This document shows positions 31,707 to 33,810 of a stretch of DNA of 64,000 nucleotides, one piece after another. The stretch comes from Wickerhamiella versatilis (lineage: Eukaryota). The translations under genes and the position numbers were made by a program. The stretch's first letter is position 1. The number at the start of each line of letters is the position of its first letter. The stretch lies in assembly GCA_030867685.1 (NCBI GenBank), contig JAQOWU010000008.1:248001-312000 (forward strand), given 5' to 3'. The notes beneath the pieces were generated by a model. The model did no database searches. It was not told where the DNA came from and saw only the letters and a list, made by a program, of their open reading frames with translations.

Positions 31707-33131
31707 TCATGCGCTCTTTAGTAGGAAAGTGAAGGACAGGAGAACCAAAAATACCAAAACCAGGATATCGAAACTAAAACTTGGCAGCCATTGAAATGAC
31801 CAAGACATGAGCTTTAGGAACAAAGGAGGCAGTAAAACTCCAATAATAGACATTACAATGCTCATAGCTGCCTGAAACGAGCCACTGCGCTCTGGTGGCA
31901 CAACCTTCAACAATGCACCTTTATATGCCGGCGCTCCTATAGCTGAGGTGGCATCAAGTACACCACCAAGATAAAATTGTAAACTATTTTTGGATAAACC
32001 CATAACAAGATAGCCACAGGCACACATTAAGAGGGCAAACCGCACTAAATTCGCATCTACCTTATCAATGCCATGTGGATTGATGGTCCAGAGTCTGCTG
32101 AAAAAGAAAGAAACTATGGGAAAACCAATAACAAGACAAAAGGCCCGCCATAATGCAGTTACGGATATATAGTATCCAGACTCAACAGCAGACCAGCCAA
32201 ATAGACGTTTTGGGTAGAGAAATATTACATAGACAAATGTCATTGCTATATCGGTTCCCAGAAGAGAGCACAAAAGCATGATTCGTGAATTGGTCTTTTC
32301 ACGCCGGTTATTAAGGCGACTAAAAAGTAGATTTTCCAGTATTTCCTTAGGCTGAAGATGCTCTTTTACGGCCTGATGTCCATGTGCCCCCCGTGGATTA
32401 TCATTCATAGAAAAGTGTAGCAATATACCACAGAGAAAAGTAGATGAGAAAGTTAATATATACAAAACATTTTGCGAGGTCCAATGTATGATCAAAGATC
32501 CTAACGTGGGGCCAATAGCAACAGATAAATGAGTAAGACCATCAAGTACTGCAAAAAACCGAGTACGCTGAGATACATTCGTAGTAGAATCAGTAATGTA
32601 GGAGACTATTGCCATATTTACAACAGACTGCGAACCCCCAAGACCATCGATTAAAATAGGTACTATTAACCACCAATGTGTGCTTAAAGCACCAGAAAAG
32701 GCAAGCGACCACCAGGTTAACTGAGCTATTCCACTCACCATAATACCACCAAATGCTACTGGCTTACGCCCTATGGCATCACTTAGCGTACCTAAAATGG
32801 TATTCATAATAATACTCAGAAGCCCACGAAGAATTGTGATAGCTGAAGTAAATACAGCCACTTTATCACTAGCTTCCGAGCTGGTAAGACATTCATGCTG
32901 CTGCAGGTTCAGAGGACGGCATATAAGCGCATAAATAATATCAATATTGACTGTAAAAGGTAACATACTGATCACTGAGTACAGTGCTATTACACCAAGA
33001 ATTAAGAAGATATTGGAGCGGGAGTTTGTACCAGACAACACTCTCCTAGAATTACCAGGAATTTCTTGAAGTTCATAATAGGGGGCATTTTCTTCAGCAG
33101 GCTCGAAATATACCTGTCTCGGTGATGCCAT
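31707..33131 (-). CDS. MFS transporter, fungal SLC46/YJL163C-like
   Basis: 474 aa with about 12 TM segments. LICR...EC luminal loop, GTLSDAIGRK motif A, SYITDST...RTRFF, GPTLG, FGWS. Confidence 0.85.
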   Translation of the reverse strand: MASPRQVYFEPAEENAPYYELQEIPGNSRRVLSGTNSRSNIFLILGVIALYSVISMLPFTVNIDIIYALICRPLNLQQHECLTSSEASDKVAVFTSAITILRGLLSIIMNTILGTLSDAIGRKPVAFGGIMVSGIAQLTWWSLAFSGALSTHWWLIVPILIDGLGGSQSVVNMAIVSYITDSTTNVSQRTRFFAVLDGLTHLSVAIGPTLGSLIIHWTSQNVLYILTFSSTFLCGILLHFSMNDNPRGAHGHQAVKEHLQPKEILENLLFSRLNNRREKTNSRIMLLCSLLGTDIAMTFVYVIFLYPKRLFGWSAVESGYYISVTALWRAFCLVIGFPIVSFFFSRLWTINPHGIDKVDANLVRFALLMCACGYLVMGLSKNSLQFYLGGVLDATSAIGAPAYKGALLKVVPPERSGSFQAAMSIVMSIIGVLLPPLFLKLMSWSFQWLPSFSFDILVLVFLVLLSFTFLLKSA

Positions 33132-33207
33132 AGCCCCTCAGTCTCTCAAAAAAGGTCAATAACCAGTCTGACTAACACATGGAATAACTTGGTCTCTAAA
33201 ATTTGGA
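33132..33207. promoter_or_regulatory. 76-bp spacer between the divergent MFS and TetR start codons; candidate shared regulatory region
   Basis: Contains GTCA-N10-TGAC (33155-33172), the palindrome AGTC-T-GACT (33165-33173) and a near-direct repeat GTCTCTCAAA/GTCTCTAAAA. All are short and may be chance. Confidence 0.35.
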
Positions 33208-33810
33208 ATGGCTGATCGTATTGTTGCTAAAAAAGCACTTTCTGATGCCACAAGATACAATATCTTGAAAGAGGCGACTAAAATATTTGCACGATATGGA
33301 TATAGACGGGCTTCTATGGACGAAATCGCCCGAGCTGCCGGTATGTCACGGCAAGGACTCTATACTCATTTTCCGAGCAAAGAAACACTGTTCAAAGCAT
33401 CCGTTGAATTTGGTACCGAAGAAAGCTGTGATATGTTTGCATCGTGCTTGTCAGAATCGAAATTATCTCTAGAAGACCGACTTCTTAATGCCTTTCAAAT
33501 AATGGTGGGGAATCCAGCTGGGCTTGAAAACTTTGAAGAAATTATCAATGTAGCACGAAGTTTGAATGTCATTATAGATTTAAATGGCCAACTTGTGGGG
33601 ATGATAGCAGCTGCGCTTGATAGGACTGATATCCCTCTGAGGTGGGCTAGCTTGGGTCTGACAACTATTGATCTCGCCGAACACCTTGTAACAGTTTCTA
33701 ACGGCATAAAGAAGCCAAGTTCTACTCAATTATACCAAAAGCATATGCTCATGGCTATCCGTATGGTTTGCCGAGGTGCTGCACAAGAAATTAATGAAGC
33801 CAGAACATAA
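33208..33810 (+). CDS. TetR/AcrR family transcriptional regulator, bacterial type
   Basis: Intact N-terminal HTH (TRYNILKEATKIFARYGYRRASMDEIARAAGMSRQGLYTHFPSKETLF) followed by a helical C-terminal domain; 200 aa. Confidence 0.93.
   Translation: MADRIVAKKALSDATRYNILKEATKIFARYGYRRASMDEIARAAGMSRQGLYTHFPSKETLFKASVEFGTEESCDMFASCLSESKLSLEDRLLNAFQIMVGNPAGLENFEEIINVARSLNVIIDLNGQLVGMIAAALDRTDIPLRWASLGLTTIDLAEHLVTVSNGIKKPSSTQLYQKHMLMAIRMVCRGAAQEINEART

Follow-up and report, generated by a model that had tools for sequence, protein, structure and literature searches.

A transcribed TetR-family gene of bacterial origin in the yeast Wickerhamiella versatilis: a candidate for promoter capture beside an SLC46-like transporter gene

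The gene pair and its spacer

This study concerns a pair of divergent genes in the yeast Wickerhamiella versatilis, one coding for a regulator of the TetR/AcrR family and the other for a transporter of the major facilitator superfamily. The two genes, referred to as TetR and MFS, are found on contig JAQOWU010000008.1 (assembly GCA_030867685.1), in the stretch from position 248,001 to position 312,000 of the forward strand. This stretch of 64,000 nucleotides was analyzed as a whole and is called the window; all coordinates below are window coordinates. The features of the pair, including the two open reading frames (ORFs) and the helix-turn-helix (HTH) domain of the regulator, are the following:

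31707..33131, - strand: MFS ORF, 474 residues (PF07690); SLC46-like (PCFT/HCP-like), lineage-specific
33132..33207: spacer between both start codons, 76 bp; shared divergent core promoter region
33208..33810, + strand: TetR/AcrR-family ORF, 200 residues (PF00440); bacterial origin, intact, transcribed
33262..33399, + strand: HTH DNA-binding domain of TetR, residues 19-64 (Pfam)
33811..34862: region 3' of TetR, 1052 bp without an ORF of at least 150 residues; three ORFs of 82-96 residues overlap it

A first-pass annotation had described an ORF of 200 residues and one of 474 residues with start codons 76 bp apart, and the coordinates and Pfam assignments agree with this. TetR matches PF00440 (TetR_N) over residues 19-64 with an E-value of 4.5e-17 and 62 bits (cut-off 24). 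MFS matches PF07690 (MFS_1) with 85.6 bits (cut-off 33.4).

The 76 bp between the start codons form one control region shared by divergent genes, as in tetR-tetA pairs. Among the seven divergent ORF pairs of the window, this spacing is the smallest, the other six being 549-1932 bp apart. The spacer contains the two inverted repeats to which the first-pass annotation had drawn attention, GTCA-N10-TGAC at 33155-33172 and AGTC-T-GACT at 33165-33173. They have, however, no statistical weight, since they are at or below chance both in frequency and in arm length. Counting those with arms of 4 bp and a loop of at most 12, two inverted repeats were observed, compared to 3.5 +/- 2.2 in 1000 shuffles, and two or more were reached by 81% of the shuffled spacers. 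The longest perfect arm in the spacer is 4 bp, the shuffle mean being 4.9.

Chromosomal setting

The window is a segment of a yeast-type eukaryotic chromosome. Two complete eukaryotic ribosomal DNA (rDNA) units (18S, 5.8S, 25S) are found at 39486-52226 on the same contig, about 6 kb from TetR. The units are in tandem with a period of 7305 bp, have 25S, 5.8S and 18S on the - strand, and are bordered by unique sequence on both sides. A 5S rRNA gave no match anywhere in the 64-kb window. The rDNA array is probably collapsed in the assembly. On the other side of the pair, an Ecl1-family gene is located 1.1 kb past the MFS stop codon. Rpn13, glycogen phosphorylase and a eukaryotic aspartyl protease are encoded elsewhere in the window.

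TetR is host-like in composition. Its GC content is 0.42, and that at third codon positions is 0.33; the bacterial loci encoding its relatives have a median GC content of 0.68. The relative synonymous codon usage (RSCU) of TetR correlates with that of the pooled other 24 ORFs of the window with r = 0.63, and these ORFs range from 0.20 to 0.85. A 3.6-kb stretch with the gene pair was wholly or partly present in 20 of the 24 listed public runs (13 studies). The listed runs include isolate runs of organism A from 2018 and 2023 and several food-fermentation metagenomes, while seven rows are possibly the source of the assembly. TetR is, as expected for a xenolog, embedded among eukaryotic genes, similar to the host in composition and reproducible in independent data.

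Bacterial ancestry of TetR

A word-indexed protein search, in which 408 candidates were scored, returned 18 proteins with an E-value of at most 1e-3. Two of these are lineage copies without names (P0001, 98% identical; P0002, 67% identical). Of the remaining proteins, 13 show 30-42% identity over most of the length of TetR, and two match about one third of the query. All names given among the relatives are bacterial, including Luteibacter, Rhizobium and Pseudomonas. The alignment with the bacterial relatives is colinear over the full length, from the HTH domain to the C-terminus. From metagenomes, 598 candidate stretches were scanned and gave 282 relatives; further work made use of the best 80 of these (30-43% identity). 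Among 400 genomes sampled from one bacterial class, none gave a match with an E-value of at most 1e-15, which shows the subfamily to be sparse in that sample. A further 35 bacterial loci, from a single-sequence TetR scan of genome contigs, were not used for genomic context, as nearly all of them matched only the N-terminal HTH domain (the widest match extended to residue 121).

The tree has 82 rows, namely three yeast proteins, 13 named or unnamed proteins and 66 loci. Before tree building, the truncated P0013, the partial P0017 and P0018 and 14 of the 80 loci were removed, the latter for having fewer than 161 aligned residues, for stops or for being duplicates. In the tree, the three yeast rows group together (SH-aLRT 100) inside the bacterial family, on a stem of 1.12 substitutions per site. 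A quick search was used for this tree, which is rooted at its midpoint and lacks an outgroup test; the yeast rows are deviant in composition. Within these bounds, it shows a single origin of the yeast TetR among bacterial relatives; it names no donor. The first-pass annotation had considered TetR an intact gene of bacterial origin. This is confirmed in that the lineage copies are grouped within bacterial relatives, and that all relatives found outside the lineage are bacterial, with at most 43% identity.

Fold, dimer and conserved residues

TetR has the architecture of its family, with the HTH domain (TetR_N) at the N-terminus and, in the AlphaFold2 (AF2) model, an all-helical C-terminal domain for ligand binding and dimerization. 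The AF2 model, computed from a 17-row alignment, has 11 helices and a mean predicted local distance difference test score (pLDDT) of 86.6. All of the Foldseek matches listed have E-values of at most 5e-4 and are TetR-family or related one-component regulators. The PDB matches among them are TetR-family regulators such as FasR, MexL and NalD, with template modeling scores of 0.4-0.67. At the sequence level, TetR matches 90 TetR-family sequences from the PDB with an E-value of at most 1e-3. Of the 20 NCBIfam families listed, none was matched by TetR at its equivalog cut-off.

A homodimer model has a score of 0.62, compared to 0.01 for the best control, a value which may reflect likeness to solved TetR dimers. 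The mark of 0.62 is reached by 20 of 30 proteins solved as one-chain pairs and by one of 23 proteins solved as single chains. At least 75% of the contacts agree between the homodimer runs, the partner pLDDT is at least 82, and the predicted interface is formed by residues 145-193, which are the last helices.

The recognition helix is well preserved. Residues S47, R48, Q49, G50, L51 and Y52 are invariant in the 17 alignment rows and, together with H54, F55 and K58, represent the bacterial consensus. In 78 bacterial relatives, 41 columns are at least 85% conserved, of which 35 are kept by the window protein and 33 by P0002. The six changed columns are V26I, K34R, T35A, L46M, L53T (A in P0002) and L112I. 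Four of them (K34R, T35A, L46M and L53T) are in or near the HTH domain, and in the bacterial proteins, K34 is 100% and L53 is 99% conserved. As the HTH domain is the part best conserved between the two yeast species, the protein most likely still acts as a ligand-binding, DNA-binding homodimer.

Expression and constraint

The RNA evidence consists of one raw-read run of a related strain and of contigs of uncertain library type; none of the listed runs with the stretch is recorded as RNA. The raw reads (X24), labeled as the same species, mostly show 95-99% identity to the window and thus represent another strain. Their summed depth on TetR is about 47 (33192-33578) and about 28 (33579-33965), while the four MFS bins have a depth of 5-11. 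Neighboring genes reach 190-280, the depth is 0 at 30870-31643 and at most 1 at 33966-35126, and the region 3' of TetR (33811..34862) has a depth of about 0-1. Carry-over of DNA is argued against because intergenic bins have zero depth. The contigs of X11 and X12 are from the same sample as isolate run X1 (library type not recorded) and cover the pair with 100% identity. Those of X11 have transcript-like limits, at 31528-32055 and 32080-33156 for MFS and at 33187-33981 for TetR. A contig of X12 (31649-34065) spans both genes.

The 5' ends of the TetR and MFS transcripts are thus suggested to be very close to each other or to overlap. Overlapping 5' transcripts or steric control had been proposed in the first-pass annotation on account of the short spacer. 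The contig limits make close or overlapping 5' ends plausible, but a steric switch is unsupported.

In the other yeast species, TetR is 67% identical (P0002) and MFS is 55% identical (P0020). Between the TetR of the window and P0002, 47 of 66 residues are identical in the HTH region, compared to 87 of 134 outside it. In run X20 (organism B), 5 of 623 bases are different in the TetR contig and 27 of 1109 in the MFS pieces (23 of 856 and 4 of 253); flanking genes differ at 20 of 923, 52 of 2141 and 66 of 2100 bases (2.2-3.1%). These conservation and divergence figures together point to purifying selection on TetR. DNA binding probably still matters because the HTH domain is the best-kept part of the protein.

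Genomic neighbors and operator of the bacterial relatives

For each of the 80 bacterial loci, up to two ORFs on each side of tetR were taken. The largest neighbor cluster is a short-chain dehydrogenase (SDR, PF00106) of about 309-330 residues, which occurs at 22 of the 80 loci, 16 times directly upstream of tetR on the same strand and six times downstream. A hidden Markov model of the yeast MFS family detected no MFS-like neighbor at any of the 80 loci (E-value of at most 1e-3), although this profile does detect ordinary bacterial DHA1 pumps. Regulator and transporter were thus not inherited together, and the eukaryotic type of the transporter (see below) agrees with this. The first-pass annotation had likewise considered a joint transfer improbable.

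Co-transfer of an SDR gene or of another bacterial neighbor was considered and rejected. No remnants of any bacterial neighbor gene were found within 29500-35000. The window does not code for a close homolog of the partner SDR, its only SDR matches being generic (26-32% identity, near 15.7 kb and at 19.3-19.8 kb).

A conserved palindrome is found upstream of the SDR-tetR units. With at most one mismatch, TTGACA-N15-GTMAAG occurs in 48 of the 80 loci (460,854 bases in total). The symmetrized operator matrix, which has 34 columns and was built from 45 distinct sites, corresponds to aACTTGACAAnnTgGGCCcAnnTTGTCAAGTt and has 27 bits. In 25 of the 48 loci, the operator ends at most 150 nt before the first aligned tetR base. 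It is located 151-1300 nt upstream in 21 loci and elsewhere in two. Of those 21, 15 have the operator at 940-1046 nt, where it precedes a co-directional gene of about 1 kb, and in 10 this gene belongs to the SDR cluster. The operator overlaps -35 and -10-like hexamers (e.g., L082:3535-3561 and L041:4632-4658; the loci are numbered L040-L119). This placement is the expected picture of an autoregulated unit.

The position weight matrix (PWM) of this operator was applied to the window. The best score in the 64 kb is 7.1 (within an ORF, at 35636), compared to at least 13.5 (median 27.1) for the training sites; the maximum over the window in 100 shuffles is on average 9.2 +/- 2.9. In the region 33100-33240, which includes the spacer, the best full site scores -20.5 and the best half-site 0.8. 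By this measure, neither the spacer nor the rest of the 64-kb window contains the ancestral operator, and operator palindromes of the kind expected in a tetR-tetA control region were not found between the two genes. A scan of 32900-33400 for sigma-70 promoters and terminators gave hits at chance level.

The MFS transporter

For MFS, an exhaustive search of representative proteins gave 770 matches with an E-value of at most 1e-3, 17 of which are at or below 1e-30. Apart from a copy with 98% identity, the best relatives are 30-36% identical, have 472-492 residues and are unnamed. The only named hits close to MFS are fungal or algal (Rhizoctonia, Xanthoria, Bathycoccus), and the relatives P0022-P0027 appear to be of fungal origin. 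In a 12-row alignment of the family, the cysteine pair C71 and C81 in the first loop is invariant.

The best solved structure for the MFS profile is the proton-coupled folate transporter (PCFT) SLC46A1 (7bc6, E-value 3.4e-17). MFSD10 (2.3e-9) and then VMATs are the next matches, and the bacterial YajR is found at 4e-9. When the profile was searched against proteins, members of the family scored 538-615 bits, while every named bacterial DHA1 transporter scored at most 81 bits. The NCBIfam models for Tet pumps were far under their cut-off (61 bits vs. 475). MFS thus has the MFS fold with its closest solved relative in SLC46. The sequence evidence supports its assignment as a eukaryote-type, SLC46-like transporter, in line with the first-pass annotation, where a eukaryotic-looking protein with a cysteine-containing first loop had been noticed. 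The designation as an efflux transporter is unproven, as the nearest solved relative is a proton-coupled importer.

Interpretation

We consider TetR to be a domesticated xenolog that gained its expression by promoter capture in a divergent region, and whose target, if any, may be elsewhere or have diverged; we put the probability of this at roughly 55%. Under this proposal, the gene for a bacterial one-component regulator of the TetR/AcrR type would have been transferred alone into the ancestor of a small yeast lineage. It would have landed in the divergent intergenic region that separates the gene for the SLC46-like transporter from the next gene, at a distance of 76 bp from the MFS start codon. 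Bidirectional yeast promoters are well established, and a promoterless gene beside a core promoter would be transcribed as the divergent partner. TetR would be transcribed from such an intrinsically bidirectional promoter region, which amounts to promoter capture, and it would have been kept as a working gene. The target of TetR, if any, would be elsewhere or would be a diverged site that is not yet recognizable.

The geometry of the locus is compatible with an insertion of this kind. The next ORF starts at 34863 on the + strand, and the spacer and the region 3' of TetR add up to 1128 bp (76 + 1052), which is within the range of the other six divergent pairs. The region 33811..34862 may be the rest of the original intergenic region between MFS and the ORF at 34863. 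Because the ancestral operator is absent, the head-to-head layout is best explained by a gain of expression and not by an evolved switch of the tetR-tetA type. Together with the lack of the ancestral operator, the shared changes at K34, T35 and L53 point either to a new specificity or to a target elsewhere.

Several points weigh against this proposal. Transcript ends cannot be derived from contigs, and the RNA data are not resolved by strand. Purifying selection was judged from identity figures, and the ancestry from the quick, midpoint-rooted tree with its compositionally deviant yeast rows. The adjacency of TetR and MFS in the species with 67% identity is taken only from P0002 and P0020 reporting the same longest contig (20,849 nt). 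A constrained HTH domain implies a DNA target, and the nearest candidate is the 76-bp promoter of TetR itself. L53T/A and K34R could mean a new specificity beyond the reach of the PWM, so that TetR may bind to the spacer even without the ancestral operator. Finally, a head-to-head pairing across 76 bp with a drug-pump-like MFS gene is the classic TetR layout, which would have to be a coincidence.

The first-pass annotation had suggested a chimeric ligand-responsive efflux circuit assembled in the yeast. In this case, a TetR dimer would bind to a diverged, weak palindrome in or next to the spacer and would sterically repress both MFS and itself until released by a ligand. In engineered yeast, a TetR protein bound near a core promoter can repress genes transcribed by RNA polymerase II (Pol II). 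The divergent layout with the shortest of the seven spacers, the conserved HTH domain with 35 of 41 family columns kept, and the homodimer model fit such a switch. Both genes are transcribed, MFS at a low level, and in this search, close relatives of TetR and MFS were confined to the same two lineage copies. The shared changes in the HTH domain (K34R, T35A, L53T/A) could reflect a new operator. However, the inverted repeats of the spacer are at or below chance, and neither the full-site nor the half-site score in 33100-33240 points to an operator. The bacterial subfamily is paired with an SDR and not with a pump, and the SLC46-like transporter may be an importer or an exporter. The efflux circuit is not supported, and a switch at this locus is unlikely. 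The stronger version, in which the yeast has wired TetR into Pol II regulation so that a dimer at a newly evolved spacer site makes the SLC46-like transporter and TetR itself ligand-dependent, seems rather unlikely to us.

Alternatively, TetR might have kept approximately its ancestral specificity and might control one or a few genes elsewhere that carry a site of the CTTGACAA...TTGTCAAG type, a co-transferred SDR gene being the candidate. The recognition helix, which has the bacterial consensus at S47-Y52, H54, F55 and K58, would fit this, as would a bacterial subfamily with a well-defined operator and an SDR partner. Against it, a site of the ancestral type was not found in the 64 kb scanned, the window is devoid of a close homolog of the partner SDR, and K34 and L53, near-invariant in bacteria, are changed in the yeast. 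We regard such a regulation in trans as doubtful.

It is improbable that TetR is a neutral passenger, that is, a functionless ORF whose transcription is a mere side effect of the bidirectional promoter and which is either decaying slowly or has stayed intact by chance. In favor of this are the long stem branch of 1.12 substitutions per site, six changed positions among the 41 columns conserved in the family (with four in or near the HTH domain) and the failure of the operator PWM to find a target site in the 64-kb window. Faster protein evolution of xenologs in chromosome-end domains is, moreover, described for related high-HGT (horizontal gene transfer) yeasts in the available text of PMC13376923. 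Yet the window, P0001 and P0002 (67% identity) all have the ORF in an intact form, while the adjoining MFS is down to 55%. In addition, the HTH domain is better conserved than the remaining protein, and the nucleotide divergence of TetR in X20 is below that of the flanking genes.

An artefact, either bacterial contamination or a chimeric assembly, has nothing in its favor except the bacterial family assignment and is very unlikely because the GC content and codon usage of TetR are host-like, because fungal genes and eukaryotic rDNA flank the pair on both sides, and because the whole stretch recurs in the isolate runs of 2018 and 2023 and in several metagenomes, with RNA contigs covering it at 100% identity.

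Significance

The great majority of bacterial genes acquired by eukaryotes code for enzymes. A DNA-binding regulator is expected to be of no use when it arrives, since its operators do not travel with it. Nevertheless, something appears to select for TetR. Over an evolutionary distance that reduced MFS to 55% identity, the gene has remained intact, transcribed and adapted to its host, with the DNA-binding domain as the best-kept part. If TetR binds yeast DNA, it would show the recruitment of a prokaryotic one-component sensor into Pol II regulation and would represent a natural, yeast-adapted ligand-responsive repressor. If it does not, the locus would be a clean case of a promoterless xenolog that gained expression via a bidirectional promoter. 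Should the switch be true, the synthetic Tet systems would have a natural counterpart, and TetR would be the first one-component repressor from bacteria for which native function in a eukaryotic nucleus is shown. The operator and the SDR partner of the bacterial subfamily are a concrete starting point for finding the ligand of TetR.

Xenologs from bacteria are well known in yeasts. According to the available text of PMC13376923, three Wickerhamiella/Starmerella species have about 600 xenologs. They include "gene-specific transcription activators" derived from bacteria (six in W. versatilis, one each in the other two species) as well as three "putative transcription factors". The same text describes xenolog-rich chromosome ends, some of them beside rDNA clusters, and xenologs of the butanediol pathway. 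A yeast gene of the TetR family was not described in the literature searched; the supplementary xenolog lists of PMC13376923 were outside this search and may include this gene or a relative.

Other genes in the window

The ORF at 36435-37220, which is 2.6 kb from TetR, codes for a bacterial-type acetolactate decarboxylase (NCBIfam equivalog TIGR01252, 256 bits vs. a cut-off of 180.65). It has an RNA depth of about 80 in X24 and is probably another xenolog. An ORF of 265 residues at 6516-7313 belongs to the class A beta-lactamase family (PF13354, E-value 7e-41), which is unusual in a yeast. Two acyltransferase-3 ORFs (PF01757, a mostly bacterial family) are found at 28321-29487 and 56215-57354, one on each side of the rDNA. 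The former is strongly transcribed (depth about 190). Of the 25 ORFs, the Flavodoxin_2 ORF at 27237-27836, which is similar to NAD(P)H quinone reductases, is the least host-like in its codon usage (RSCU r = 0.20), and it may be a recent acquisition.

Two long ORFs, at 34863-36113 (416 residues) and 9246-10481 (411 residues), do not have a Pfam match with an E-value of at most 0.1. The one at 34863-36113 is barely transcribed in the runs mapped. A repeat at 30210-30253, just upstream of the highly transcribed Ecl1-family ORF (30277-30588), was skipped in read mapping, and reads are apparently cut there.

Comparison with known systems

(a) The xenologs of Wickerhamiella and Starmerella. Like those described in the available text of PMC13376923, TetR is a bacterial gene with host-adapted composition and is found among bacterial-looking metabolic genes near rDNA. 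With its rDNA, the acetolactate decarboxylase, the beta-lactamase-like gene and the acyltransferase-3 genes, the window resembles the picture drawn there.

(b) The bacterial TetR/SDR subfamily, which is uncharacterized and has members in Luteibacter, Rhizobium and Pseudomonas. The yeast TetR shares with it the colinearity over the full length at 30-43% identity, a nearly identical recognition helix, the same helical fold and a predicted dimer interface formed by the last helices. It differs by being encoded in a eukaryotic nuclear genome, by an AT-rich, host-like coding sequence, by having neither an SDR partner nearby nor the 34-bp palindromic operator in the window, and by the changes K34R, T35A and L53T/A at near-invariant positions.

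(c) The fungal SLC46-like transporters of the PCFT/HCP type (HCP, heme carrier protein). Candida albicans orf19.6976, the ortholog of which in Saccharomyces cerevisiae is YJL163C, is placed in the PCFT/HCP family in the available text of PMC2636803. Yjl163c is listed among vacuole-localized candidate AP-3 cargoes in that of PMC8859911. MFS has in common with these a folate transporter as the best solved relative and the cysteine pair in the first loop. Its nearest relatives outside the lineage are only 30-36% identical, and YJL163C is a putative relative, linked by family description.

(d) The tetR-tetA pair of the Tn10 type. As in that system, a TetR-family gene is head-to-head with an MFS gene across a short shared control region. 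In the yeast, however, the spacer lacks operator palindromes, and the transporter is SLC46-like and not a bacterial DHA-type Tet pump. The yeast TetR and MFS are of different evolutionary origins, and their promoters are those of Pol II.

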